Both the position numbers and the translations under genes were made by a program. A stretch of DNA of 50,189 bases from an uncultured Candidatus Saccharibacteria bacterium (GTDB lineage Bacteria > Patescibacteriota > Minisyncoccia > Phycocordibacterales > UBA2100), in NCBI GenBank assembly GCA_964419595.1, contig CAYQQI010000001.1, positions 1-50,189 of the forward strand, written 5' to 3'. Every line of letters begins with the position of its first letter. The stretch's first letter is position 1. Shown here one piece after another: positions 262-17,166 of this stretch. Below the pieces are notes generated by a model, which did not search any database, was not told the DNA's origin, and saw only the letters and a program-made list of their open reading frames with translations.

Positions 262-290
262 AAAAAACCCCGGCGAGTGGCCGGGGTTTT
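262..290. terminator. intrinsic terminator hairpin (A-run / CCCCGGC-loop-GCCGGGG / T-run)
   Basis: A 7-bp GC stem (268-274 pairs with 280-286) is flanked by A6 and T4. It lies directly at the stop of the minus-strand CDS 289..507. Confidence 0.6.
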
Positions 291-507
291 AGCTACCGCC
301 GCCGTCTCCTCCTCCGCCATCACCTCCACCGTCTCCCGCTGAGAGGGAATCGAGCCAGCTTCCACTGTTATCCGGAGTGTCCGGCACTTTTGTGCTGTCG
401 TTGGCTGCACCCGCACCGCCTATAAGCGCAGCGCTGCCGGCAGAACCGTCATCACTCTTGCGGCCCTTTGCATCTTTCTTTGATCTTAAAAAGTCGAAGA
501 AACCCAT
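289..507 (-). CDS. hypothetical small protein with Gly/Asp-rich C-terminal tail
   Basis: Trimmed from ORF 289..540 to the ATG at 507. It reads MGFFDFLRSKKDAKGRK...SGSWLDSLSAGDGGGDGGGGDGGGS, and the terminator hairpin overlaps the stop. Confidence 0.45.
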   Translation of the reverse strand: MGFFDFLRSKKDAKGRKSDDGSAGSAALIGGAGAANDSTKVPDTPDNSGSWLDSLSAGDGGGDGGGGDGGGS

Positions 508-4002: not shown

Positions 4003-4461
4003 ATGGCAGACACAAATAACCTCGTAGATTTCCGTGCACGACATGCGCAAAAGCAGGATGACGAGCGCGCGGCGGCGGCGTATCTCGAGCAGCTCAAGCA
4101 AGTCGCGGATTTTATTGCAGAAGCCGCTGGTGAAGGGGACTATGACCCGCAGAGGATTTCCGACGACAATGAGTTTCTCTTCAAACACAACGATGTCTCG
4201 GAGCGTGCCGCCGGCGTTTCCGAACGAGTCCTCGCACACTTGTTCCACCATCTTCGCTCAAAAGAGACTCGGCGTTTGATTCACCTGAAGCGTAAGCCCA
4301 TGCGAAACTCGTCGCTCGAATCGCTTTGCGACAAGCTCAACAACAGCACGGCGCCGCTCTGGGAGCTGGAATTCATCTATTTCGCGGCGCTTGCCATCGA
4401 ATACGAGCGGCGAATGGCCTACATCGTGCTCATGGGCACAACGGGAGGCTCAATGCTCTGA
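4003..4461 (+). CDS. hypothetical protein
   Basis: The ORF is 152 aa. The ATG is preceded by AGGAG plus 6 nt, and a terminator follows. Confidence 0.6.
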   Translation: MADTNNLVDFRARHAQKQDDERAAAAYLEQLKQVADFIAEAAGEGDYDPQRISDDNEFLFKHNDVSERAAGVSERVLAHLFHHLRSKETRRLIHLKRKPMRNSSLESLCDKLNNSTAPLWELEFIYFAALAIEYERRMAYIVLMGTTGGSML

Positions 4462-4471
4462 ACCGGTACCG

Positions 4472-4499
4472 AAAACGATCGCCACGCGCGATCGTTTTT
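4472..4499 (+). terminator. intrinsic terminator
   Basis: The sequence is ACGATCGC-cacgc-GCGATCGT followed by TTTT. Confidence 0.7.
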
Positions 4500-4521
4500 G
4501 TTTTGCGTTACAATCCCTGCC

Positions 4522-5052
4522 ATGGAACACGCGGCATTTTTACTCGGTATCAACGTGGGTCGTCGTATCGTGAAAATGGCAGCTCTGCAGGAGCTTATCG
4601 AGAAAGAGGGATATACGGATGTGCGCACGTATCTTGCGAGCGGCAACGTCCGCTTTGAGGCCGGAAAGCAGAGCCCGGCATCGATCGTGAAGAAACTTGA
4701 GCCCGCGCTGGAAAAGCAATTCGGTTTCAAAATTGAGATCATTCTACGCACGGTCAAAGAATTGGAGAACATGCTGAAGGCAGACCCGTTCAAAAAGATA
4801 CCGGTGGGGAAGAGCACGCGACTCTACGTGACCTTCCTCGCGCAGAAACCCCTGAAACCTGAAAAGCCTCGAAAGGTGTCACCGCAGTACGAAATACTGA
4901 AAGTCACACCCGGCGAGGTGTATTCGCATCTCGAGATATCGGAGCGCTTCAAAACACCCGACATTATGAAAGAAATGGGGAATTCCTACGGAAAGAAGAT
5001 AACAACCCGCAACTGGAACACTCTTCGTAAGATAGTGGACTCCGAGGGCTGA
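4522..5052 (+). CDS. DUF1697 family protein
   Basis: Trimmed to MEHAAFLLGINVGRRIVKMAALQELIEKEGYTDVRTYLASGNVRF, which is the typical DUF1697 N-terminus. Confidence 0.75.
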   Translation: MEHAAFLLGINVGRRIVKMAALQELIEKEGYTDVRTYLASGNVRFEAGKQSPASIVKKLEPALEKQFGFKIEIILRTVKELENMLKADPFKKIPVGKSTRLYVTFLAQKPLKPEKPRKVSPQYEILKVTPGEVYSHLEISERFKTPDIMKEMGNSYGKKITTRNWNTLRKIVDSEG

Positions 5053-5056
5053 AAAG

Positions 5057-5085
5057 TTGCCTTTTTCGGCCATCTGGTGCATACT
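5057..5085 (+). promoter_or_regulatory. candidate sigma70-like promoter for rpsJ (TTGCCT-17-CATACT)
   Basis: The hexamers have 17-nt spacing. The predicted transcription start lies only a few nt before the rpsJ ATG, so the mRNA would be nearly leaderless. Confidence 0.3.
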
Positions 5086-5096
5086 CTGCGGGTTCT

Positions 5097-5459
5097 ATGA
5101 CAGCGGAAAAGACGGCTAAGAAGCGCGCCCCGCGCGCAAAGAAGGGTGAGGGAACTCATCGCCTTCGCATTCGTGTACGTGCATACGAGCACGGCGTTTT
5201 GGACAAGTCCGTCAAACAGATCATCGACACCGCGGCCCGCTATAATGCGACCGTTGTCGGCCCCGTTCCGCTCCCCATCGACATCCGAAAATACACCGTC
5301 AATCGCTCCTCTTTCATTGATAAAGACTCCCGCGAACAGTTCGAAATGCGCATTCACAAGCGCATGATCGACATCCTGAATCCCGAGGCAAAGGTCATTG
5401 AGGCGCTCACCAATATCGATTTGCCCTCCGGTGTATCAATCGACGTCAAAATGATGTAG
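5097..5459 (+). CDS. rpsJ: 30S ribosomal protein S10 (uS10)
   Basis: RLRIRVRAYEHGVLDKSVKQIIDTAARYNATVVGPVPLP...REQFEMRIHKRMIDI is a canonical S10 core. There is a short basic N-terminal extension. Confidence 0.97.
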   Translation: MTAEKTAKKRAPRAKKGEGTHRLRIRVRAYEHGVLDKSVKQIIDTAARYNATVVGPVPLPIDIRKYTVNRSSFIDKDSREQFEMRIHKRMIDILNPEAKVIEALTNIDLPSGVSIDVKMM

Positions 5460-5481
5460 TCCGAAATGGACCCAGGGATCA

Positions 5482-5509
5482 GGTCTCCGAAAGGGGACTT
5501 TTTCTTTTT
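5482..5509 (+). terminator. intrinsic terminator directly after rpsJ
   Basis: The sequence is GTCTCC-gaaa-GGGGAC (one G.U pair) followed by TTTTTCTTTTT. Confidence 0.6.
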
Positions 5510-5521
5510 GGAGCCGGAGCG

Positions 5522-6613
5522 TTACTCGCCCCGCGATCGTGCCGCTTTGAGCGCCTCCAGGCATTCGTTCCTCTCCTCTGCAGACACTTTCGTACACAGT
5601 GTTCCGGCTTCAATACCCTTTCCGTAATTAATGTATTTTTCAAGCATTCCTGAAACGCAGGATACGCGGTCAAGACGGTCGGAGAGTCCAAGACAAAGCC
5701 GCTCCACCTGCGCGTAGTCCTCAAGATTTTCCTGTATGACCGCACCGTCGTTCCCGAGGCCGTTGAAACAATACGACCGCGCCAAACCGCTGAGCGTTCC
5801 GCACGCCCGGGCGCCTTCCTCGCGTATGTATTCAGGCGACACAGCTGATGTTTCGTTCAGATGCAGGCCGGTCAAAAAAGCGAAACAGGCGCGTTGATAC
5901 GGCGCTGCATATGTTGAACAGGGGTAGAGGTAGTCGTTTGCATCGGTATGAACAGAGGGTTCGTGAAATTTGACCGATAGATCGGAACCGAAACTTTCCA
6001 TGAATACACCGCGAAAACAGCTATCACGACGCGTCCCGCTTGCCATCTTTTCGCAGACCGAAAGGCTTTTCGACACGTCCGAGGTCGCAAGGAACAGGAC
6101 GTGGCCGATGCCGTGGCACAATTGTCCGGATGCGTCGCAGTATTTGCTTCCCGCGCCACGAATTATTTCATCATCCGCATGCACCAGGTCTTCCGTAGCG
6201 GCAAGGCCGGGCGCAGAAGACATAGACTCGGCAATAACACCGTGCAAGCATCCTGAGCCGCATATCGGACTGCACGCGGCGAGCGCAGACTCAATGGAAC
6301 CCTCTTGTCGGGCGAGTGACTCTCCGATGATATGACCGATACTGTGACAATTCGACGCGAGCGCTCGCGCTGATGTGCTTGCGCTCGCATACGCCAATAT
6401 TTCCGCCGCGGAATGTGCCGGTAACAAATCGTGCAGCGTGCTCGTGAGGCACGAAGCATTCGGCGCGGCGTACGCTGATGGTGTCGCAAAACATCGAGAC
6501 AATGATCGGAGAGATCGTCCGTCCTTCATTTCAGTGTATCGAACGCCGCACACGACGATTGCCACACAAACAACCGCAGTGCCTATCAGCAGCAGGGAGC
6601 GGGACATCCTCAT
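5522..6613 (-). CDS. membrane-anchored Cys/His-rich repeat protein (paralog family, copy 1)
   Basis: Trimmed to MRMSRSLLLIGTAVVCVAIVVCGV (TM anchor). It has repeated motifs CHSIGHIIGE, CGSGCLHGV, CHGIGHVLF, SCFRGVF and YCFNGLG. Its ATG overlaps the stop of the upstream small ORF (ATGA). Confidence 0.75.
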   Translation of the reverse strand: MRMSRSLLLIGTAVVCVAIVVCGVRYTEMKDGRSLRSLSRCFATPSAYAAPNASCLTSTLHDLLPAHSAAEILAYASASTSARALASNCHSIGHIIGESLARQEGSIESALAACSPICGSGCLHGVIAESMSSAPGLAATEDLVHADDEIIRGAGSKYCDASGQLCHGIGHVLFLATSDVSKSLSVCEKMASGTRRDSCFRGVFMESFGSDLSVKFHEPSVHTDANDYLYPCSTYAAPYQRACFAFLTGLHLNETSAVSPEYIREEGARACGTLSGLARSYCFNGLGNDGAVIQENLEDYAQVERLCLGLSDRLDRVSCVSGMLEKYINYGKGIEAGTLCTKVSAEERNECLEALKAARSRGE

Positions 6614-6810
6614 GGCCTGCCATCTGTACGGTGTTTGTACTCCCGCAGCAGGTGGATGATGACCGCGATAAACACGATCACCCACAGGATTTGCCACATC
6701 ATCTTGATCAGAGTGAGATGCTCCGATAGGAATACCTGCATGGGTAGGAGGTGTGCCGGTGCATTTCCGGTGAGCGCTTTCAGTGCAATGATCGGCGTCG
6801 ATGTATTCAT
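6610..6810 (-). CDS. small single-pass membrane protein coupled to the HTTM gene (copy 1)
   Basis: MNTSTPIIALKALTGNAPAHLLPMQ...WQILWVIVFIAVIIHLL is homologous by eye to 25404..25592 (MNTPLLILKDLQGNDPVSLTPLQ...). It occupies the same position downstream of an HTTM-like gene. Confidence 0.65.
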   Translation of the reverse strand: MNTSTPIIALKALTGNAPAHLLPMQVFLSEHLTLIKMMWQILWVIVFIAVIIHLLREYKHRTDGRP

Positions 6811-6819
6811 ACGGAGATA

Positions 6820-8244
6820 TTAGTCGCGGTACTTATTTTCTACAGGGTATCCGACGAGCGGTGCTTCGGGGGGTAATTTAATCCACTCGTTATGTACGAA
6901 CGGCATGTATTCAAGAGCGCACATATCAGGTTCGTTGATCATACGGTAAAACGGTCCGCCGTTGACCGAGTGCTCGAATACGAGTGCCACTTTTTGGACG
7001 CCTTCCAATGCGCACGCATGTTGTATCCTTGTCCACCAGTCATACGGATCGCAGCGATAGAGCGACGAGCCTGATTCATACGTTGTCTCGCGGATACGCA
7101 CCCCACCCTGCGTCGTCGTCTTTGATTGAACGACGCAGTATAAGTCTGTGCATGGTGTCCCGGCCTCGACTTCCATATCGGCTTGATACTGGATCGTGTC
7201 GGTGAGCGGGTCCGAATACACTTTCTGAGAAATTATGCACTGGTGATTTGCCTCAAACATGAACATGCCGTAGCGGTTGCCTTCGAGCGTCATGATGCGC
7301 TCCTCCGCGGGCACGACGAATCCGAGTATTTGAAATGCGCAAATGAATGCGACGATCGCCCAACCCGCGATGGCGCGAAGCGCAAACGGCGTCGGAGTGT
7401 AGCGGTAGAACAGTCCGAAGAGGATCAGCAGTGGAGGAAGCGCCACGCTCGGATACATGTAGTACACAAACAAGCCCGAGTACAGGTGAAAGACGGTGAA
7501 AAACACCAGTGCGATGCGTTGTCGAATTCGATACTTCGAAAGCAGGAACCAGCACCCTACGATTTGAGAGAATATGACGAGGTTGGTAAAGAGCGGGGTA
7601 ACCATCTTCGGTATGAGCGGAAGTCCGTTTTGTAATGAGGTAAAGTACGTTCCAAGGATCCATGTCGAGTCGAGCTTGATGGTCGCGGATACGAAGTAAC
7701 ACACGACGAAAACGATCTTCAAAAAGTATTCCTTGAACGGGACAAAAAGCAGGACCGCCGTCAGGTACAAATGGTAGTAGAAGTACGGCGCATTGATCGA
7801 ATAGGAGAACATAAAGACGACGAGCGCTTCCCACAGAAAAAGAGCGGTCATGAGTGCGTGTGCACGCGTCCACCATTGCTTCCACATGCACCACACGATC
7901 AGATACATCATCGCGTAGAGCACCATATAGAAAATACTCTTGCCGTAGTTCTCTGTCATCCCCGGCAGGAAAAAGAAGTCGGTACAATTCTGGAAATGTG
8001 GCCAGCAATTGGCGGTGCCGCGCGCTACACTCTGAGTCGTTGCGACTGACGTCTTAAGCCACTCGTCGAATACCAGCAAGAAAAACAGGAGCGATGCACC
8101 GAAATACCATTGCAGTGTTTTATTCTCGCGTATTTCTCCGATCGAGAAGACACGCTCGTATGTCATTGCCGCAGTCGCAAACATTCCTTTCATGAAGCGG
8201 GTTACGGACGACCCCGACTCTCTCAACATTGCGCCAGTATACAT
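6820..8244 (-). CDS. HTTM / vitamin K-dependent gamma-carboxylase-like polytopic membrane protein (copy 1)
   Basis: A multi-TM N-terminal half contains SATIKLDSTWILGTYF. It is followed by YGMFMFEANHQC and a soluble C-terminal domain (ALVFEHSVNGGPFYRMINEP) that recalls the VKGC lumenal region. The ORF-track start at 8331 is GTG. I trimmed to the ATG at 8244 (MYTGAM) by alignment with the paralog; 8229 and 8193 are also possible. Confidence 0.6.
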   Translation of the reverse strand: MYTGAMLRESGSSVTRFMKGMFATAAMTYERVFSIGEIRENKTLQWYFGASLLFFLLVFDEWLKTSVATTQSVARGTANCWPHFQNCTDFFFLPGMTENYGKSIFYMVLYAMMYLIVWCMWKQWWTRAHALMTALFLWEALVVFMFSYSINAPYFYYHLYLTAVLLFVPFKEYFLKIVFVVCYFVSATIKLDSTWILGTYFTSLQNGLPLIPKMVTPLFTNLVIFSQIVGCWFLLSKYRIRQRIALVFFTVFHLYSGLFVYYMYPSVALPPLLILFGLFYRYTPTPFALRAIAGWAIVAFICAFQILGFVVPAEERIMTLEGNRYGMFMFEANHQCIISQKVYSDPLTDTIQYQADMEVEAGTPCTDLYCVVQSKTTTQGGVRIRETTYESGSSLYRCDPYDWWTRIQHACALEGVQKVALVFEHSVNGGPFYRMINEPDMCALEYMPFVHNEWIKLPPEAPLVGYPVENKYRD

Positions 8245-8300
8245 GTGAATGTTGCTTCGTTTGAAGTCCTCAAATACCCCTCGTGCTAAACTCGATTGCA

Positions 8301-9668
8301 ATGTGGACGAAGATACAGGACGTGTGTGCACGAGTCACCTTGGAAAAAAGATACTGGCGCTCGGACATATTCTGGACGCAGTCACTATTTTTCAACACAG
8401 CAATCAAGTTCATCCCATTCTGGATGGATTGCTGGGCGCTAAAAAAGAGCCAATATTGGCCCTATTCGCAGATCGCTGCTTTGCGTGAGCGAAAACTGAG
8501 AATGCTCTTGCAAGGCGCTTCGACGCTTCCGTTCTGGAAGCAGTATTTCGAAAAGGGCGGGATCGATCCCGGTCGCGCAACAGTTTCGGAACTGGAGCGA
8601 ATACCAGTGACCGACCGGCGGGATTTTTCGGACCTGCAAAGTGCCGAATACATCATCGCATCTCTCCTACCGCGTTCATTTGCAGATCAGACATCGGGCT
8701 CCACAGGCAGCCCCTTTCGCTTCTATCACGACAGAGGAATCGTGTTGCGTTCCTTTGCTGTACGAGAGCGTATGTTCCGAACTGCGGCAAAGGGGATGAG
8801 GTACCAAATAGTATCAATGCGCGCTAAGGAGCGGATCGGAATGGCCTTTTTTAAGCATTACTTCTTTTACATACGAGGCTCAAACAGCATCAGGCATCGT
8901 CTCCCGCATCTCGTTGATGTCGTGAACAAACTGTATCGCGAAGGAATCGTGCTGTACGCAATTGCCTCCTGGGTCATGACGCTTGCCAGAGAAGTTGAGC
9001 GGGCGGGAGTAACGATCCCGTTTCAGGCCGTGATCTCAACGGGAGAATCGATGCTACCAAAGGAGCGCACGTACGTAGAGAAAGCACTGCAGACCAAGCT
9101 TTTTCTCGTGTATGCATCTCAAGAAGGGAATTGCATGGCATTTGAATGCGAGCATCAACGGTTTCATATCAACGAAGAAGAGATCTATTTTCAGATCGTG
9201 GATTCCTCCGGGGCTTCGCTCCCGTACGGAGCCGTAGGAAAAGTGGTTTTTACATTGCTGGACAATCGTGTCATGCCGTTCATTCGATACTCCAACGGAG
9301 ATATCGGCTCTATCTCTGACGAACAATGTCCGTGCGGACGAAGGCTTCGTACAATAACCCTTCTCGGAAGGGAGAAAGACCTTATACAGCTACCGGAAGG
9401 CAGGGAAATTGTGTTGATGGACTTGGCACCGATCTTCGACTACTACTTCGACGCTATACAGCAGTACCAGATAGTTCAGAAAAGTACGAAGCATTTTCTC
9501 ATACGTGTTATCGTGACCGCTCAATTCGAAGCGAAACAGGAACGGCTCACCGCCCGCCTCATGCGTGTCCTACACCCTGCGGTTAGGATCGACTGGGAAG
9601 TAGTAACTCATATACCGCATAGCGAAAGCGGTAAGGCCATATATTTCGTGCGAGAGAGTATCGAGTGA
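8301..9668 (+). CDS. PaaK / coenzyme F390 synthetase-like adenylate-forming enzyme (copy 1)
   Basis: DQTSGSTGSPFRFY is a P-loop-like AMP-binding motif. IRYSNGDIGS..CPCGR and the overall length fit the PaaK family. The start is uncertain (GTG 8283, ATG 8301 or ATG 8424). Confidence 0.7.
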   Translation: MWTKIQDVCARVTLEKRYWRSDIFWTQSLFFNTAIKFIPFWMDCWALKKSQYWPYSQIAALRERKLRMLLQGASTLPFWKQYFEKGGIDPGRATVSELERIPVTDRRDFSDLQSAEYIIASLLPRSFADQTSGSTGSPFRFYHDRGIVLRSFAVRERMFRTAAKGMRYQIVSMRAKERIGMAFFKHYFFYIRGSNSIRHRLPHLVDVVNKLYREGIVLYAIASWVMTLAREVERAGVTIPFQAVISTGESMLPKERTYVEKALQTKLFLVYASQEGNCMAFECEHQRFHINEEEIYFQIVDSSGASLPYGAVGKVVFTLLDNRVMPFIRYSNGDIGSISDEQCPCGRRLRTITLLGREKDLIQLPEGREIVLMDLAPIFDYYFDAIQQYQIVQKSTKHFLIRVIVTAQFEAKQERLTARLMRVLHPAVRIDWEVVTHIPHSESGKAIYFVRESIE

Positions 9669-9671
9669 TGC

Positions 9672-10556
9672 TTAGTATTTTGAATCTACCGAAAGCTGTT
9701 TCTCGAATTCTACGACCGGCAGACGATAGATCTGATCTTTCCCGTATTGCGCTCTCACACCCCCCTTCGCTACCTTGGTAAGTGACAAGATCTTCTCATA
9801 TCCGTGGTACTTGGGTCGCGGTTTTAAAAGCGGGAATTCCCACTGAAAAACGAGTCGTTTCAACGTGTAGACACTGGTTCGCTGCCTGAAGACGTCCGGA
9901 TGCTGCAGCGCGAATTTGTTCGCCGGCAACCGCAGATACGACAGGCAGAGCTCGGGCGTGCTGAACATAAAATACGGAACATGTCCCTGCGTGTTGCGCT
10001 CGATCCAGTCAAACGGGACCTTGTACCCCGCATTAAATTCAAGGAATATATCATCGGGCGCGAGAGTAACTTTTTCGCGGTCGATATCGTAGTATTGTTC
10101 GCCGCCCGCGATGACCGCGATGCCCCCCAAACTCTCAGCGATCTCCATCAATTTGATCTGCAGGTACCGTATCAGGTAAAAGGACACGAATCCTTTTTGG
10201 AGATACGCGGGGATCTCGTTCCGGAAAAAATTCTCCATGTCGACCGAGACGATCTTCTGGTGCACGCCGTGTTTCCTGCACCAGTTTCGCGCGTACGCTA
10301 TGTCGTGCTCGTTGGTACCGCTCGCGTGCCGCAGGGTGAGAACAGAGAAATTAATACCCTGGTCAAAGAATGCATGACACATAACCTCGCTATCAATGCC
10401 ACCCGAGGAACAAAGCCACAGTGGTCTGTCTGCACGGGAGGCGATAGCGAGCGCGGAGGCACGCATCTCCTCTTTCCAGCTTGCGGGCTTTCGCGTGCAC
10501 GGGCGAAATCGGGTGCAGAATGATGAGTCGGTACGCTTGAATTCGATCGCCGGCAT
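9672..10556 (-). CDS. PP-loop ATP pyrophosphatase superfamily protein (adenine-nucleotide alpha-hydrolase fold)
   Basis: LWLCSSGGIDSEV is an SGGxDS PP-loop motif near the N-terminus. ATG 10556 was chosen; GTG 10565 is an alternative. Confidence 0.7.
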   Translation of the reverse strand: MPAIEFKRTDSSFCTRFRPCTRKPASWKEEMRASALAIASRADRPLWLCSSGGIDSEVMCHAFFDQGINFSVLTLRHASGTNEHDIAYARNWCRKHGVHQKIVSVDMENFFRNEIPAYLQKGFVSFYLIRYLQIKLMEIAESLGGIAVIAGGEQYYDIDREKVTLAPDDIFLEFNAGYKVPFDWIERNTQGHVPYFMFSTPELCLSYLRLPANKFALQHPDVFRQRTSVYTLKRLVFQWEFPLLKPRPKYHGYEKILSLTKVAKGGVRAQYGKDQIYRLPVVEFEKQLSVDSKY

Positions 10557-10564
10557 GGCCACCA

Positions 10565-11872
10565 CTATACCGCACCGGATTCATCGAGAACGATCTTGGA
10601 TTTACCCCGAGGCAGTCGGGGGATAGATGCTACGGCTGCGAGAATGACATTAACTTCCGGTCCCATGAGCGCTTGAATCTTTTCGCGTATTTGGCCCTCG
10701 ACGAGCGTATTGAATGCCGGGGTCGGTATGATTCTCACCTCGAGCTCAGTATCCGATCCCTTGACGATCAGATATCGGAAAATGAACGGCGAGAACATTT
10801 GCATAAGTTCACTGAACTCAAATTGGTGGAACCTTCTCGGACCGAATGTGAGCATGGCCGAGTATCGCCCGGTGATCCACACTCGCTGCGACTGAAGCCC
10901 GCATGCACATTTCTCCCACGAAACATGCCCGCGATCCCCGGTATCGTAGCGAACGAACGGCATTTCGTAGTTGTACAGGTCGGTGATCACGATCTTGCCG
11001 CTCATTCCCTCAGGCACAGGATCACCGCTGCTATCGACTATCTCTACAATGCACGACTCTACGTACACGTGGAACCCGTCATGCGCACTACAATCCATAC
11101 CGATCGTACCGAGCTCCTCCAGACCGTAGCGATTGTAGACAGTGCAGTGCAATTGTTCTTCGATCAGTTGACGCGCGGCAGGGTAGAGCCGCTCACTTCC
11201 TGACACGGCGTACTTTGGTCGCGGTCCTGTACCGCTCTTTTGCACTTCGAGCGCGAGCTCTTCAAGGAATGACGCATGGCCCTCGATCACATACGGCCGG
11301 AACGCGATAAGCTCTTCGATGGCCGCTTTCGGGTCCGTGAACAGTTGGTCGGCAAATATAACCAAAGCATTCTCTCTCACGAGCGGCAACACGCGAAGGT
11401 ACGCAACACGTGCCCATGTGGTACTCATATGCCAAAGCCGCTCCTCCATAAGGAATCGGTACTGCATAAAGTCCACGTACAGGGGCATTCCTGTCGTGAT
11501 AAGTCGTCGGAGCGCAGTAAAAGGCATTCCGCTCGTGCCGGAGGTTGTGACCCACTTACCGACCGGCGGGAATGTCGAGATCGTATATTCGGATACCGAT
11601 CGACCCCGGAAGGTATCTTTATTCGTGACCGGGAGTTTTGCGAGGTCGTCGATCGTGACAATACCCGGAGAGCCGACGCCACGTGTTTGTAGGGTATTTC
11701 TGAACAGGATGATGTTCTTCTCCAGTACCGCAACTAATTCCCGCAGTTTTTTCTCCTGCCATCTTACAATGTAGGCACGATCCTTTTTATAAACGTTCCT
11801 AAAACGGTAAAAATTGTAGAAGTAACGTAGCTTTTGTCGAACAGTAAGACGTTTCAGATAGTTCAGAGCCAT
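10565..11872 (-). CDS. PaaK / F390 synthetase-like adenylate-forming enzyme (copy 2)
   Basis: VTTSGTSGMPFTAL, VRYDTGDRG and CACG motifs are present. It aligns by eye with 8301..9668. Confidence 0.75.
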   Translation of the reverse strand: MALNYLKRLTVRQKLRYFYNFYRFRNVYKKDRAYIVRWQEKKLRELVAVLEKNIILFRNTLQTRGVGSPGIVTIDDLAKLPVTNKDTFRGRSVSEYTISTFPPVGKWVTTSGTSGMPFTALRRLITTGMPLYVDFMQYRFLMEERLWHMSTTWARVAYLRVLPLVRENALVIFADQLFTDPKAAIEELIAFRPYVIEGHASFLEELALEVQKSGTGPRPKYAVSGSERLYPAARQLIEEQLHCTVYNRYGLEELGTIGMDCSAHDGFHVYVESCIVEIVDSSGDPVPEGMSGKIVITDLYNYEMPFVRYDTGDRGHVSWEKCACGLQSQRVWITGRYSAMLTFGPRRFHQFEFSELMQMFSPFIFRYLIVKGSDTELEVRIIPTPAFNTLVEGQIREKIQALMGPEVNVILAAVASIPRLPRGKSKIVLDESGAV

Positions 11873-11881
11873 AGCGGATCT

Positions 11882-13516
11882 TTATGCAGGTCGCTTTAAG
11901 CAATAGAGCTCGTTCGCGACCGTACGCGCAAAGATGCAGTGCGACGCTTCGTTGTAGGCAATTTTACTCATGATGCGCTCACTTGCCTGGAAGTATCCCA
12001 CCTGTGTCCCGTGTTCCGCACTCACCTCATACAGACATCCGTCATTCGAACCGATAAAAACGGACGGTCCCACGACGACAGGGGAGCCGAATATGCGCCC
12101 GCGGGTAAGAAACTGCCAGCGAAGCTTTGAGGAGCCGATATCTATTGCGTACAGTGTCTTATCGAGCGAGGCCACGTAGACCGTGTCGTTGTGCACGAGC
12201 GGTATGGAGTAGAGCGCCGCGCCCGTCTCATACGCGTAAATAGGCATGCCGTCGCGTGCACCGAATGCGTAGAGTTTTCCGTCCATCGACGTGAAGAACA
12301 CGATCCTCTGTTTCGCAGCATAGGCCGGCGCAACTTTAAGATCTCCTTGAGTGGCGTTTCGCCAGCGCAATGCACCGGTGATGGCATCGTAGGCATAACT
12401 GATACCGTCGTTACTACCGATCGCGACCATGCTTTCCTCTTTTATATAGAGCGGTGAGCCGTGCGTCATAGCCGCGGTTGTGTGTTGCCAGCGCATGCGG
12501 CCCGACAGCATGTCGAGCGCGACGATGCCGCCTTGCTTACGGAAGAGTCCGAATTCTAATCCGATGAACAGCAATCCGAGTTCGGGTGCCAGTGAAGGAG
12601 ATGAACCGATCCAGTCCGCATCATCGTAGCGCCACTTTTCCTTGCCTGTCCTGGAATCCAGTGCGTAGACGACTCCGTCGTACGCACCGAAATACAACAC
12701 ACCGTTGTGTATCGCAGGCGTTGAAAGAATACCTTTCCCGTCGGAGTGCTTTCCCACGTTGAACTCCCACACGACGTCACCCGTTTTCTGATCGAGTGCT
12801 CGCATGGTGCCGTCGTCACATCCGAGGAACACAAGTGAGTCGTCAATGACAGGTGCGGATTTCTGAACCACAAGGTGATAGCTCGGGTTCGGACCGGTAT
12901 AGCGCCATACGAGTTGAAGTTGAACGTTCGTTTCGATTTTTTTCTCCTGCAGGAGCGGTATACCGAAATCTTCAAGGGTGAATATGTGTCTGATCGAGGC
13001 GCCCCTGGTGCTCAATCGTTGGTAAGACTCAGGCTCACGGAATGCGAGTAGGACGAATACGTCGGTGACCGAACAGCCGGCGTCGGAAAGAATAGTCATC
13101 TGCTTCTCGAGGGTGGATCCGCTGTTGATGAGGTCATCGACGAGGACAATCGGCTCATCGGTAAGAGTACCCTCTATCTGTTTCATCAATCCGTGTCGTT
13201 TACGCGATTTTCGTATGAAAAAACCGTTGATAGGCGTTCCGCGTTCCGCTCCTTTCATCACGATAGCCGCGATGAGCGAGATGCCCGCGGTTTCCATTGC
13301 GCCCACTTGGAACGGGAGTTTGTCCGCGTATTGTTCCCAAAATATCTCTGCGTAACGGTTCAGCCATTTTGCCTGCAGCATGAGGGCGCGGAAATCAAAG
13401 AGCCACTCCTCGCGTTTGCCCGTCACCTCCGAACCTACGATCACGGCACCCTCTGAGCGCTGCACGAATGCGGTTGATTCGATTGCGCGTCGCAGGTCCT
13501 CGTATCCGTTCGTCAT
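11882..13516 (-). CDS. type I phosphoribosyltransferase (OPRT-like) fused to a PQQ-like beta-propeller repeat domain (copy 1)
   Basis: The N-terminus has LFDFRALML, GISLIAAIV, FFIRKSRKRHG and the PRPP loop IVLVDDLINSGSTL. The C-terminal ~350 aa has repeated ...G.VYFG..DG.LYALD..TG...W modules. Confidence 0.75.
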   Translation of the reverse strand: MTNGYEDLRRAIESTAFVQRSEGAVIVGSEVTGKREEWLFDFRALMLQAKWLNRYAEIFWEQYADKLPFQVGAMETAGISLIAAIVMKGAERGTPINGFFIRKSRKRHGLMKQIEGTLTDEPIVLVDDLINSGSTLEKQMTILSDAGCSVTDVFVLLAFREPESYQRLSTRGASIRHIFTLEDFGIPLLQEKKIETNVQLQLVWRYTGPNPSYHLVVQKSAPVIDDSLVFLGCDDGTMRALDQKTGDVVWEFNVGKHSDGKGILSTPAIHNGVLYFGAYDGVVYALDSRTGKEKWRYDDADWIGSSPSLAPELGLLFIGLEFGLFRKQGGIVALDMLSGRMRWQHTTAAMTHGSPLYIKEESMVAIGSNDGISYAYDAITGALRWRNATQGDLKVAPAYAAKQRIVFFTSMDGKLYAFGARDGMPIYAYETGAALYSIPLVHNDTVYVASLDKTLYAIDIGSSKLRWQFLTRGRIFGSPVVVGPSVFIGSNDGCLYEVSAEHGTQVGYFQASERIMSKIAYNEASHCIFARTVANELYCLKRPA

Positions 13517-13581
13517 ATCCGTTCACCGTTTATATCACGAAAGAAAATCGCAAGTAATCGACACCGGGAAAATGGTCCGGC

Positions 13582-14859
13582 TTAATAGCTGTATCTGCCG
13601 CTCTTCCGAATGGCGGGGAGTTCCTGCGTATACTGAGCGAATTTAGAGATGCACAACTCCTTCGCGTCAGCATGCATGCATGCATTCTCTGAGGGGGCGA
13701 CATCAAGTCCGTCGTAAGAAAAGAACGAGTAGAAACAGGAATCCTGAAGCGTTTCGGAGCGTATTGCTGTGCAGTATGTAAGTGCTGTGCCCGGTCGTCC
13801 GTAACTTCTCAGTATCCGAACGTGACCGTGGGCACAACTCTCTCTATCGGTCTCATTCGGTAGCTCTGCGCATATGCTCACAAGTCCTTCGGTTGTGGTG
13901 CCGGTCTGTTCCACGTAAAAAGGGAGGAATCTTCCAATGCCCTCGAAGCAATACGCTCGCTCCGGCATACCGAATGTCTCGCATGCTTGAGTCGCGATGC
14001 GCAATTTCTCCGCACGCTCTGTAATATTCTTTCTTGCGAACAATATCTCTTGGTAGGGGGGGAGGTACTTGAAGCACGGATGCCGGTACCGTTTTTCATC
14101 AGGGGCGATCGTATTACAGGGATACCCGTAATCATCGTCAGGAACGTCTGCCAATGACGGAACGGACTCACTCAATACCAAACTATTTGGCACGCCGCCG
14201 ATGCCTTGCATATAGACGCCGGTCACGCATTGGTCAAGCATTTCACCGGTCGCAATCGACCCGCAGCTTTGCGTGGCCGCTTTAAAGTTGCCGGTCAAAG
14301 AATAGAGAATGTGACCGATACCGTGACAGAGCTCCGTATTGGCAATACCCAGGCAGAATTTCCCCGCGACCGCCTCGATCTGTTCCGTATCCATATGCGC
14401 GATATCGACCTCGTCGACGCGTATACCGAGCCGCTCTACCATGACTTCGCCCAAAGCTCCGTGTAAACAACCGCCAAAGCATTGGTTGCTGCAGCGGGAC
14501 AGTGCGTGCTCGAGGTTCGGATCAACACGATATGTTTCCTGCCCGATAACATGTGCAACGCTGTGACAGTCACCATAGGGCTTCGGCATGGACCTCGAAC
14601 TTACGTCGTTCAACAGTTCGCTCGCGGTGCGATTTTCGAGCGCAGACCGGACGATTTCATGTGTGCAGGCGATGAGTTCTGATGAGCCCTGCGAGTCCTC
14701 TGCACAGCTTTGCAATCCGGTCGTAAAGTTTCGTTCCATGCCTCGAGCACGGTATGAGTCCAGCTCTCCGATACAGAGGATGGCGAACGATACCAGCAGG
14801 CACGCGATGAATATCCGGACCGGGATGCTCCACGCACGAGGATGAAGGGGGAGACTCAT
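13582..14859 (-). CDS. membrane-anchored Cys/His-rich repeat protein (copy 2)
   Basis: The TM anchor is VRIFIACLLVSFAILCIG. Motifs include CHSVAHVIGQ, CFGGCLHGA, CHGIGHILY, QCVTGVYMQ and YCFEGIG. ATG 14859 was chosen; GTG 14865 is an alternative. Confidence 0.75.
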   Translation of the reverse strand: MSLPLHPRAWSIPVRIFIACLLVSFAILCIGELDSYRARGMERNFTTGLQSCAEDSQGSSELIACTHEIVRSALENRTASELLNDVSSRSMPKPYGDCHSVAHVIGQETYRVDPNLEHALSRCSNQCFGGCLHGALGEVMVERLGIRVDEVDIAHMDTEQIEAVAGKFCLGIANTELCHGIGHILYSLTGNFKAATQSCGSIATGEMLDQCVTGVYMQGIGGVPNSLVLSESVPSLADVPDDDYGYPCNTIAPDEKRYRHPCFKYLPPYQEILFARKNITERAEKLRIATQACETFGMPERAYCFEGIGRFLPFYVEQTGTTTEGLVSICAELPNETDRESCAHGHVRILRSYGRPGTALTYCTAIRSETLQDSCFYSFFSYDGLDVAPSENACMHADAKELCISKFAQYTQELPAIRKSGRYSY

Positions 14860-14870
14860 ACACACCGATG

Positions 14871-15617
14871 TTAATCCTCAGCAACGTTCCCGGCATGAAT
14901 CGATGTGTCCTTACAAAGCGTTATCGTGTGAATCGATTGTTCGTTCTCCTCGTCGAGATCAAGGAGTTCCGCAATGACCGCATCGTCGAATCCGGCATAG
15001 GGGCGAACATTCAACCGGAGCGCACTTCCCACCAGCAGCATGTTTTCACTCATGTGTCCGGCCTCAAGCAGCGTATGGATATAGGACAACTCACCGTACT
15101 TTGCAGATGAGCGCTTCCATACGCCGGTGAAAACGATCAGCCCGGACAGTGACAACCACTCCGGGTGTCTGGCGATACTTTTCATGTCGAATTGCGGCGG
15201 GAGGTCCCACAAGCGCTCGAGCGCGTGTTTCGAGGGATTATAGTGGAACACCGCAGGACTTTGCGATTCCACCGCGTTTGATATCAGGTATGACTCAACC
15301 GGATAGAGTGCTCCGCCGGAAGGATAGTTTCTATTCGTCACACCGTCGCGTTTTCGAAGTGCAGAGCCGAAGAGTGTGCCGAGTTCCCGAAGTGAGATAG
15401 CGATGCCGGCATCGCCTTCGTGTCCGGAGATCCGGCTATCCAGTGCCTCCTGAAGTGTTGTTGTGAGTACATCCGGCTGCGGGAGCGAGATGCATTGCAT
15501 ACGAGGATATGCTTTGTGGACCCCTCGCGGGACCTCTTCCGGTCGGTGGGTTGCACCTTTTCTGGTGAGGCGAGTGCGCCGCAACTCCATATGCAAGCGG
15601 GATAAAAAAGAGCTCAT
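14871..15617 (-). CDS. SagB-type dehydrogenase (nitroreductase fold), pair 1
   Basis: YPSGGALYPVESYL, FHYNPSKHALERLW, SAKYGELSY (Lys-Tyr motif) and LLEAGHMSENMLL are present. Its ATG overlaps the YcaO stop (ATGA at 15617..15614). Confidence 0.85.
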   Translation of the reverse strand: MSSFLSRLHMELRRTRLTRKGATHRPEEVPRGVHKAYPRMQCISLPQPDVLTTTLQEALDSRISGHEGDAGIAISLRELGTLFGSALRKRDGVTNRNYPSGGALYPVESYLISNAVESQSPAVFHYNPSKHALERLWDLPPQFDMKSIARHPEWLSLSGLIVFTGVWKRSSAKYGELSYIHTLLEAGHMSENMLLVGSALRLNVRPYAGFDDAVIAELLDLDEENEQSIHTITLCKDTSIHAGNVAED

Positions 15618-17053
15618 GAGAACGGGTGCGGACTCTCCGCGAACGGTTCTTTCCGTGGCGTATAACCCAGCGCTCGCGGCACCTCGTGCCAGCGCTCTCC
15701 GCCGAATTGCCGGCTGGCTTCGTTGAGGTACGTTGGAACCATCTCCGGCACAATGACCATTTCAATATGAAGATCCGTCGGGTTTTTCGCAGAATGGGTC
15801 AGGGGGACCGAAACAACATTGAAATGCTTCGTGCGACACCACTGCACGATGCGTTCAAGATTCTCCTCTATCGTATCGTTTTCCCACTCTTTCGCTTCGA
15901 CCTCTATCTCCGGACCCTGCACCAGAAATTCAAGACGCTTGGCGTTCTCAGGTTCTCCCCAGTAGTACAGACGCTCCCGGTGTCCGATCGTCTCGATTGG
16001 TGTGGTCGTATCCCATGATTTTCCTTCATTCTCCCAGATGTGGTAGCTGCGAAACGCACGTATAGATTCGCACATCGCTTTCTCTATTGCAGTCGGCAGT
16101 GAGCGGTGAGCACGGATACCAAAACTAAACCGCGGACTCTTCCCGCTCATGTCCTCGAGTACGACTGCTACCGCGTGCGTCGGTGCGTCGGTTTGAAGCC
16201 GGATGACATGCGGTTTCAGTCTGTATCGTTCGCACTGTGACACTGCCCGGCCAAGTGACGGGTTCAACCTTCTCAGCGTATCGAGTGCAATGCGGGGAAG
16301 CGTGAGTTGATTCAGCCACATGATCATATAGGCTTCTCGTTCGATCACTTCCAGGATGCCGGCAAGCCGCGCGCCGCACTGCGTTGGCCACGTAGCCAGA
16401 CCGTTTGTATTTTGTTGCCGAATGATCGGTTCATTCGGTGCACACATGTGACGCCGACTGATACCGCTCACAATTTGGGCAGGAACGAATGTGTTTTCGC
16501 TGTGCGTGAGCGAAATGCCTTGGACCCACAGATACGCTGCGTCGGGTCGCAATATTCGTGCAGCGTGCCTCGTTCGCTGCGCTTCCGTGAAACCGGTGAT
16601 ATTTTCCGGGGCGATGGATGGGCCTATGGCCGTAATTTCCCGGTACGTGGCAATTGTCGGGTTTACGAAATAGTCGTTCTGCGTCATCCAAATGTAGCGC
16701 TCGAGTGCCTCCGAAGTAGCGGCATACAACGCGTTCTCGTCACTTTCCCAGGTCGTGCCTCCGGTCTGGTGTGCGGTATGTTCATTGCACAGGGCATACC
16801 AGGCTTTCGTCGGCGGCTCGTCCGGGGCGCGGTATACCCGTCCGAATTCCGAAATTACCCCGTGGTCTTTGAGAAGCTGTGCGCGCTGAAGGGGCTCCAG
16901 TAGGTCGGACCGACCGTAGGGAATGGTGCGGGAGTCCTTTACTACCCGCACGTCCAATCTTTTCTCTATATGGTCCGTAAAAGCCCGCAGGGCTCTTTCT
17001 TTAATATTCGAGCCGTTGAGTAGTTCAGTGAACCGTACGGCATCAAAAATCAT
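15614..17053 (-). CDS. YcaO-family cyclodehydratase-like protein, pair 1
   Basis: Trimmed to MIFDAVRF. SEALERYIW, TNGLATWPT and LEVIEREAYMIMWLN are YcaO hallmarks. The C-terminus is ...ESPHPFS. Confidence 0.85.
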   Translation of the reverse strand: MIFDAVRFTELLNGSNIKERALRAFTDHIEKRLDVRVVKDSRTIPYGRSDLLEPLQRAQLLKDHGVISEFGRVYRAPDEPPTKAWYALCNEHTAHQTGGTTWESDENALYAATSEALERYIWMTQNDYFVNPTIATYREITAIGPSIAPENITGFTEAQRTRHAARILRPDAAYLWVQGISLTHSENTFVPAQIVSGISRRHMCAPNEPIIRQQNTNGLATWPTQCGARLAGILEVIEREAYMIMWLNQLTLPRIALDTLRRLNPSLGRAVSQCERYRLKPHVIRLQTDAPTHAVAVVLEDMSGKSPRFSFGIRAHRSLPTAIEKAMCESIRAFRSYHIWENEGKSWDTTTPIETIGHRERLYYWGEPENAKRLEFLVQGPEIEVEAKEWENDTIEENLERIVQWCRTKHFNVVSVPLTHSAKNPTDLHIEMVIVPEMVPTYLNEASRQFGGERWHEVPRALGYTPRKEPFAESPHPFS

Positions 17054-17166
17054 TGGTGAATCATAGCAAAACACGAGTTCTTTCCACAAGCCGAGGCAAG
17101 TTATCCCACGTGCCGTGGGGCGCACTATATAAATGCGGTGGTATCATTTACCTCATATTTTCCTCT

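Follow-up and report, generated by a model that had tools for sequence, protein, structure and literature searches.

Two PaaK-type ligases and a PP-loop enzyme as a possible tailoring module of an azole-peptide island in a Candidate Phyla Radiation bacterium

Among the gene clusters described for ribosomal peptides, those for linear azole-containing peptides or thiazole/oxazole-modified microcins (LAP/TOMM), such as microcin B17 (McbBCD), encode a YcaO protein, a SagB-type dehydrogenase and a Gly/Ser/Cys-rich precursor in one string, and the locus studied here is built likewise. To our knowledge, an E1-like partner is part of the known LAP clusters, and tailoring genes of the PaaK or PP-loop type are not. 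In other clusters for peptides made by ribosomes and modified after translation (RiPPs), AsnB-like PP-loop enzymes have been described, of which TsrC and ScdTA perform C-terminal amidation and PesC forms a C-terminal nitrile, together with the lasso cyclases (PMC13060819). In the present study, we analysed a stretch of 50,189 nucleotides, called the window below, from an uncultured Candidate Phyla Radiation (CPR) bacterium (assembly GCA_964419595.1, contig CAYQQI010000001.1, positions 1 to 50,189). It carries three adjacent genes, two for PaaK-type ligases (PaaK-A and PaaK-B) and one for a PP-loop protein, within an island of YcaO and SagB genes of 35 kb or more that is absent from same-genus relatives. 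We tentatively favour the reading that this trio is an optional cytoplasmic tailoring module of the azole-peptide island, in which each enzyme makes an acyl-adenylate from ATP. AsnB-like tailoring of RiPPs is already known, and what would be new here, judging from the sequences, is the presence of PaaK-type ligases in a YcaO cluster; our literature search found no relevant paper with both 'YcaO' and 'PaaK' and no PaaK-type ligase reported in a YcaO cluster.

All three open reading frames (ORFs) are intact at the positions that an earlier note on this DNA had given them (Table 1), and since each has tens of full-length homologues, they are real genes and not chance ORFs. The start of the PP-loop gene (ATG at 10556; MPA..., consensus MSA) is backed by the homologue alignment, and that of PaaK-A (ATG at 8301) is compatible with it. 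The note had also described a tight convergent and co-directional block, which is borne out by gaps of 9 nucleotides (read from the sequence) between the stop codon of a phosphoribosyltransferase-propeller gene (PRTase-propeller) and the PaaK-B ATG at 11872, 8 nucleotides between the PaaK-B stop (10567-10565) and the PP-loop ATG, and 3 nucleotides between the convergent stop codons of PaaK-A and the PP-loop gene. The minus-strand string runs in the order YcaO1, SagB1, Cys/His-rich membrane protein, PRTase-propeller, PaaK-B and PP-loop. PaaK-A lies on the plus strand, converges on the PP-loop gene and diverges from a membrane gene, the product of which we take to be a putative HTTM / vitamin-K-carboxylase-like protein. 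No signal peptide or membrane span was found in the translation of any of the three, which puts them in the same compartment as YcaO and SagB.

The linkage of the trio to the peptide island was observed directly in other genomes as well. We compared 11 longer loci (the window, L001 = L031, L003 = L012, L005 = L035, L011, L013, L032, L033, L034, L126 and L127) and counted as island genes YcaO, SagB and PRTase-propeller, or HTTM, Cys/His-rich, membrane-partner and TPR genes. The PP-loop relatives with 35-55% identity and enough flanking DNA were always 10 kb or less from island genes; YcaO/SagB genes were present in 8 of the longer loci, and L032 and the cut locus L001 showed other island genes only. 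The full trio occurs in seven loci (the window, L003, L013, L030, L032, L126 and L127), L001 has the PP-loop gene and PaaK-A only, and L127 runs from YcaO through PP-loop and PaaK-A to PaaK-B, with overlapping genes. The earlier note would have counted as refuted if close homologues formed a conserved unit in unrelated loci, for example those for capsule or cofactor. No such unit turned up in capsule or cofactor loci; all close homologues located lay within YcaO/SagB islands of CPR bacteria. For close homologues the note thus withstands its own test, and the trio belongs with the peptide island.

Within the island the trio is accessory. The genomes G482 and G683 (98% complete) keep YcaO1 orthologues (49% and 42%), SagB, the membrane partner and a precursor, and neither has a PP-loop or PaaK gene. 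The trio is thus dispensable for azole formation and is no required core of the azole synthetase, which argues for a tailoring module. One of the three proteins might otherwise have stood in for the partner that the YcaO enzymes lack here, for substrate recognition or for activation, and the PP-loop gene does adjoin them in many islands; but the window has three YcaO/SagB pairs and one trio, and with the YcaO/SagB/precursor clusters of G482 and G683 lacking all three genes we rejected this explanation as extremely improbable. The genome itself (1.02 Mb, 94% complete) has one PP-loop gene of this family, one PaaK-A and one PaaK-B. Genomes of the same genus and family (0.5-0.8 Mb, 99-100% complete) contain no YcaO1, PP-loop gene or PaaK-A/B, so that the island seems to have been gained recently by this strain alone; its distribution is patchy. 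In a sample of 400 genomes of the class, PP-loop homologues were absent and those of YcaO were distant ones only, which makes the sample uninformative for co-occurrence.

Both ligases belong to the PaaK-type branch of the ANL superfamily without being PaaK orthologues. The earlier note had called them PaaK/F390-synthetase-like, a label that agrees with the NCBIfam models, the PaaK structures and the full ANL motif set. They match the NCBIfam DVU_1553 family (PaaK-A 1e-30, PaaK-B 1.5e-38) and further FlxY (PaaK-A 8e-28), haloarchaeal PaaK, TIGR02155 and F390 synthetase, all with scores far under the curated cut-offs; Pfam AMP-binding was matched by PaaK-B only (2e-6). PaaK proper (TIGR02155) was rejected, with 54 and 78.5 bits against an equivalog cut-off of 646 and no paa genes among the neighbours examined. 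Aligned with each other, PaaK-A and PaaK-B show 27% identity (E 3e-36), and both match BT_0428 (PDB 4R1L; PaaK-A 1.4e-20, PaaK-B 1.6e-21), which is, with ClxA (9S3L), PaaK1/2, NatL2 and AjiA1, among their nearest solved relatives by sequence. The AlphaFold2 model of PaaK-A (predicted local distance difference test, pLDDT, 89.7), which has the two-domain PaaK fold and its short C-terminal domain, gave Foldseek matches to BT_0428 (4e-28, template modelling (TM) score 0.61-0.68) and PaaK1/2 (1e-23 to 9e-26), followed by ClxA, AjiA1, HCL and NatL2; this fold comparison covers PaaK-A, and PaaK-B is placed by its sequence match to 4R1L.

The catalytic motifs of the ligases are also intact. The A3 pattern (T/S)SG(T/S)(T/S)GxP is present as TSGSTGSPF in PaaK-A and TSGTSGMPF in PaaK-B, and in TSGxxGxPF the S, G, G and F are invariant in 22 island sequences. 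Invariant in both clades are E275 of A5, R329-Y330-D334-G336 (RYxxGD) of A7, G356-R357 of A8 and K445 of A10. The residues of EC...H and CxCG are likewise invariant in the 22 sequences and common to BT_0428; they include Cys283, His289 and Cys343-x-Cys345 (PaaK-A numbering), which, going by conservation, may form a metal site. At its N terminus, PaaK-A is extended by a helical segment of about 55 amino acids. In the tree, PaaK-A and PaaK-B are each monophyletic and island-specific (support 100/100 and 100/99), and the two clades are joined weakly (87/58), apart from the CapK_C-bearing 'phenylacetate-CoA ligase family' proteins. PaaK-B has about 42 orthologue clusters, after which similarity falls sharply to CapK_C/PaaK-family proteins, and homologues of the window ligases carry CapK_C matches. 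A third, distant PaaK-like ORF (388 aa) lies outside the island on contig C11 of the same genome (13187-13669, minus strand), with 25% identity over 155 residues.

The PP-loop protein belongs to its superfamily but to none of the named families, and its own family has no Pfam model. The SGGIDS motif reported in the earlier note is present, within the invariant SGGxDSE block of the family, and in the AlphaFold2 model (pLDDT 95.7, predicted TM score 0.92) SSGGIDSE forms residues 50-57 of a Rossmann-like domain, directly after strand 46-49. Besides SGGxDSE, N82 and E202 are invariant. Pfam and NCBIfam matches were marginal (ThiI, QueC, ATP_bind_3, TilS_N and MnmA, E about 2-4e-3), and a sequence search of the PDB gave no match. 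A profile of 48 sequences matched, through the PP-loop domain only, ammonia-dependent nicotinamide adenine dinucleotide (NAD) synthetase (NadE, 2e-4), LarE (8e-4) and TtuA (2e-3). Foldseek against the PDB gave 76 matches at E<=1e-3, of which all 50 listed are PP-loop enzymes, among them LarE, TtuA, NcsA, MnmA, NadE, beta-lactam synthetase, carbapenam synthetase and AsnB; these alignments are partial (TM 0.3-0.45) and run through the nucleotide-binding half. Beta-lactam synthetase and AsnB reach TM 0.37-0.45, with a root-mean-square deviation of more than 10 A; the AsnB-like RiPP enzymes have an AsnB-type C-domain of about 300 aa, in PesC and its relatives with a catalytic Tyr-acid dyad. Full-length fold relatives were found in the viral structure library, as uncharacterised proteins of uncultured Caudovirales (TM 0.73-0.78).

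The earlier note had looked to AsnB-like, lasso-cyclase and LarE-like clades for this protein. Superfamily membership stands, but none of these clades could be assigned, since sequence, profile and fold searches gave only generic PP-loop-domain similarity to AsnB, lasso cyclases, LarE, TilS and QueC, and the protein forms a separate lineage. It has no glutaminase domain and no match to PF00733 (Asn_synthase) at E<=0.01; a precomputed PF00733 match exists for a single homologue (P0018) out of 40. The homologues at 35-55% identity fall into about 40 clusters (90% identity), none of them named, and a full HMMER scan of the wider family gave 607 clusters (50% identity) at E<1e-30 and 1548 at E<1e-10. 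Some members of the wider family (P0231, P0216, P0302 and P0229) carry a fused GNAT acetyltransferase or methyltransferase domain, and in locus L053 a GNAT gene lies directly 5' of the PP-loop gene. Among the 48 family sequences we found no conserved CxxC motif, three-Cys site or Cys pair. One Cys (C93) is near-invariant, at a helix end before strand 3, and aligns with a Cys of Campylobacter jejuni NadE. Thiocarboxylation, which the earlier note had listed as an outcome, and sulfur transfer of the LarE, TtuA or MnmA type are disfavoured by this lack of a conserved Cys set, which favours amide formation through attack by nitrogen.

The NadE and LarE matches also bear on the neighbouring PRTase-propeller. 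NadE and LarE act on nicotinate-type nucleotides, and by analogy the PP-loop enzyme could work downstream of the orotate-PRTase-like propeller, amidating the carboxylate of a phosphoribosylated heterocycle to give a nucleotide-like appendage. In addition to these best profile and fold matches, the PRTase-propeller gene stands directly upstream of PaaK-B in the same string as the PP-loop gene and accompanies nearly all PP-loop-bearing islands. We nevertheless judge this very improbable, because the matches cover the generic PP-loop domain only, the propeller also occurs without a PP-loop gene (L064 and L065), and the PP-loop family is found on 60 predicted viral contigs without the PRTase-propeller or other reference proteins of the window.

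For the favoured tailoring reading, the following scheme may be proposed by analogy with known enzymes. The PP-loop enzyme would most likely adenylate a carboxylate and hand it to ammonia or an amine to give an amide, a step for which NadE as well as TsrC, ScdTA, PesC and the lasso cyclases (PMC13060819) provide precedent. PaaK-A and PaaK-B would each most likely activate a small carboxylic acid, and the acyl group could then pass to coenzyme A or directly to an N, O or S nucleophile, as in NatL2, AjiA1 and ClxA. Further groups, linked as amides or esters, would in this way be placed on the Gly/Ser/Asp/Cys tail of the precursor, or else on a partner molecule, ahead of export. As acceptor the peptide tail requires the fewest assumptions, since YcaO and SagB likewise have to work on it before it is exported. 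The kinds of reaction, their sequence and the peptide's part as the last acceptor are all argued from analogy.

Several observations, from the precursors, the genome and the wider enzyme families, weigh against this reading, and some of them also bear on the version of the earlier note. Ten related precursors have a membrane-anchor head, an AHADAP-type junction and a hypervariable Gly/Ser/Asp/Cys tail, and homologous precursors with the conserved AHADAP junction were present in 9 related loci. The earlier note had described the cores as Asp-rich and precursor 1 as ending in a Gly run. The Gly run is there (DDGGGG); Asp richness is moderately supported, with 11.6% and 13.2% Asp in the tails of precursors 1 and 2, but Gly (34-42%) and Ser dominate. 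Tail Asp amounts to 11.6-15.0% in trio islands, 6.4-11.8% in islands with the PP-loop gene only, and 0% and 11.8% in islands with neither, so that, across ten non-independent precursors, the Asp content of the sequences seems to track the trio only as a weak trend.

The earlier note had proposed that all three enzymes adenylate Asp side chains and/or the C-terminal Gly of the peptide, leading to amidation, lactam or ester formation. CapK-like enzymes of polymer loci are suspected amide ligases, which speaks for this proposal, and the trio lies in the same operon as YcaO and SagB, with 5-7 Asp per tail in trio islands and 0-4 elsewhere. We know of no PaaK-type or other ANL enzyme that adenylates a peptide carboxylate, and this counts against it, as do the solved PaaK relatives, whose ligands are small aryl or alkyl acids throughout. 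The Asp trend is weak, the trio-less G683 tail has 11.8% Asp, and L005 combines a PP-loop gene and an Asp-containing tail with no PaaK. Even with the AsnB-like RiPP precedent (PMC13060819), we therefore regard it as unlikely. The related proposal that a phage-derived PP-loop amide synthetase and two PaaK ligases act directly on the Asp and C-terminal carboxylates of the membrane-anchored precursor seems improbable to us. In short, what stands of the earlier interpretation is three adenylate-forming enzymes with intact motifs tied to a peptide island, and what is weakened is the peptide carboxylate as the substrate of all of them, given that solved PaaK relatives use small acids and that the phage PP-loop genes occur without peptide machinery.

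The broader families of these enzymes are not peptide-specific, and only the island clades are tied to peptide genes, as seen from the phage PP-loop contigs and from a glycan-type locus. On the 60 viral contigs, PP-loop members of 21-38% identity often occur as 2-4 paralogues, and no YcaO, SagB, PaaK or PRTase-propeller gene was found there. Their neighbours encode TauD, Asp/Asn hydroxylase, fatty-acid desaturase, Rieske, GNAT, BKACE, SDR and radical SAM proteins, which suggests tailoring chemistry; for PaaK-A/B, viral contigs gave two matches only, at 22% identity. The glycan-type Parcubacteria locus L128 (10001-19586) has five PaaK-like paralogues with 21-34% identity to PaaK-A or PaaK-B, among DegT, epimerase, GT2, PIG-L and GFO/IDH genes, and includes the next-nearest relatives of PaaK-B (32-34% identity). 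Furthermore, L032 holds the trio with HTTM and three Cys/His-rich genes and has no YcaO/SagB within 17.7 kb, and its ORF at 13515-13724 is a homologue of the precursor anchor head without the Gly/Ser/Asp/Cys tail. No pathway for the acyl or amine donor is evident in the 1-Mb genome.

These findings bear on another explanation, in which a small molecule other than a peptide is made or activated by the three enzymes, or at any rate by the two ligases, and the trio merely shares the island with the azole pathway. Such a molecule could serve the HTTM enzyme and the Cys/His-rich proteins as cofactor or ligand, or it could be a substituent of a glycan or lipid. The ligases occur strictly together with HTTM and the Cys/His-rich genes. 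HTTM orthologues with 38-52% identity adjoin PaaK-A/B in L001, L003, L013, L032, L126 and L127, and PaaK-A/B was found in 7 of 7 longer HTTM islands (these six and the window) and in 0 of 6 islands without HTTM (L005, L011, L033, L034, L063 and L064), which would correspond to a Fisher p of about 6e-4 if the loci were independent, which they are not. The free acids used by the solved PaaK relatives, the trio of L032 beside a tail-less anchor protein, the L128 relatives among glycan genes, and the phage PP-loop cassettes beside TauD, desaturase, Rieske and radical SAM genes, together with the GNAT and methyltransferase fusions, fit this explanation. On the other side, close orthologues were never seen outside peptide islands, the trio of L127 directly follows YcaO with overlapping genes, and small-molecule biosynthesis that could supply such a pathway is sparse in CPR genomes of about 1 Mb. 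On balance we consider it unlikely and retain the optional tailoring module as our working interpretation.

Islands with a PP-loop gene and no PaaK have a second PP-loop family (about 365 aa, YSGGIDST) with an adjoining partner of about 225 aa, and the same cassette occurs in further loci (Table 1); neither protein is found in this genome. The phage contig L066 shows the same order of PP-loop-1, middle gene and PP-loop-2, beside TauD and radical SAM genes, and its 215-aa middle gene gave no BLAST match to the island partner. In the divergent island of G145 (L065) there is no PP-loop gene, and its PaaK-like gene is a distant one. Some other genes of these islands may also be mentioned. In L013 (1947-3614), a fused ATP-sulfurylase/APS-kinase (synthesis of 3'-phosphoadenosine 5'-phosphosulfate) lies between Cys/His-rich genes, which suggests sulfation as another optional tailoring step. 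A MurL-like gene lies directly after PaaK-B in L127 (7025-8389) and near the PP-loop gene in L001 (11491-12873), with no homologue in the window; MurL is an epimerase that acts on a peptide-terminal Glu. At the island edge, the window encodes a small, acidic, glycine-rich ORF of 72 aa (289-507, minus strand) ending in ...SAGDGGGDGGGGDGGGS.

Table 1. Positions of the trio, its neighbours in the window and the second PP-loop cassettes of related loci.
Locus	Feature	Position	Strand	Length (aa)	Assignment
Window	HTTM-like membrane protein	6820..8244	-		Divergent from PaaK-A
Window	PaaK-A	8301..9668	+	455	PaaK/CapK-type ANL adenylating ligase
Window	PP-loop protein	9672..10556	-	294	PP-loop ATP pyrophosphatase, unnamed family; Rossmann-like PP-loop domain and family-specific C-terminal half
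Window	PaaK-B	10565..11872	-	435	PaaK/CapK-type ANL adenylating ligase
Window	PRTase-beta-propeller fusion	11882..13516	-		Pfam Beta-prop_ACSF4, PQQ_2, Pribosyltran; NCBIfam pyrE domain
Window	Cys/His-rich membrane protein	13582-14865	-
Window	SagB1	14871-15617	-		SagB-type dehydrogenase; TIGR03605 1.3e-30
Window	YcaO1	15614-17125	-		YcaO cyclodehydratase; PF02624 1.5e-43, TIGR03604 3e-50
Window	Precursor 1	17167..17478	+		Membrane-anchor head, AHAEAP junction, Gly/Ser/Asp/Cys tail ending DDGGGG
L011	Second PP-loop + partner	10877-12647
L033	Second PP-loop + partner	9302-11084
L034	Second PP-loop + partner	12315-14098
L005	Second PP-loop + partner	4373-6177
L001	Second PP-loop + partner	8022-9985
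L003	Second PP-loop + partner	4907-6696
L126	Second PP-loop + partner	6720-8555
L126	Second PP-loop + partner	11951-13716

It is of interest that a CPR/Patescibacteria strain with a tiny genome spends at least 35 kb on a peptide-modification island. The trio would add an optional layer of chemistry to a partner-less azole-peptide pathway, by means of two enzyme groups without a characterised member, namely the PP-loop family and the pair of island-specific PaaK clades. With a candidate substrate encoded close by, their function can be tested directly. Should the enzymes be found to decorate peptide carboxylates, no ANL/PaaK-type enzyme would have been shown before them to modify a ribosomal peptide, and a PP-loop family that comprises more than 600 sequence clusters and is widespread among uncultured phages would gain its first function. 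Solving the function of the trio would annotate hundreds of phage genes, and the co-occurrence of PaaK with HTTM gives a lead into the role of bacterial HTTM proteins.

Compared with the solved PaaK-family ligases (BT_0428, 4R1L/4R1M; Burkholderia cenocepacia PaaK1/PaaK2; NatL2, AjiA1 and ClxA of benzoxazole pathways; and 2-hydroxyisobutyryl-CoA ligase), the window ligases have a similar two-domain fold (TM 0.5-0.68) and the ANL motifs A3, A5, A7, A8 and A10 in common, but are only 18-20% identical and have no paa or benzoxazole genes nearby. Their nearest broad neighbourhood is the CapK-like 'phenylacetate-CoA ligase family' (CapK_C, PF27533), with 24-39% and usually 25-30% identity, for which our literature search found no characterised CapK-type enzyme. 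Unlike the CapK-like proteins of polysaccharide loci, the window ligases form long, well-supported separate branches and reside in a peptide island. As for the PP-loop protein, NadE and LarE, its best profile and fold matches, are likewise single-domain proteins of about 250-300 aa without a glutaminase; however, the E values are only 2e-4 to 8e-4, the window protein has neither the LarE catalytic Cys nor the 3-Cys Fe-S site, and its context is unrelated to NAD or to the lactate-racemase cofactor. The AsnB-like enzymes TsrC, ScdTA and PesC and the lasso cyclases (PMC13060819) differ from the window protein, which is 294 aa long, matches no PF00733, lacks the glutaminase and has a different C-terminal half. 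They are likewise PP-loop adenylators inside ribosomal-peptide clusters, that of TsrC making an azole-containing peptide, and by analogy the same chemistry may be expected in the island, from carboxylate to acyl-AMP and attack by nitrogen.

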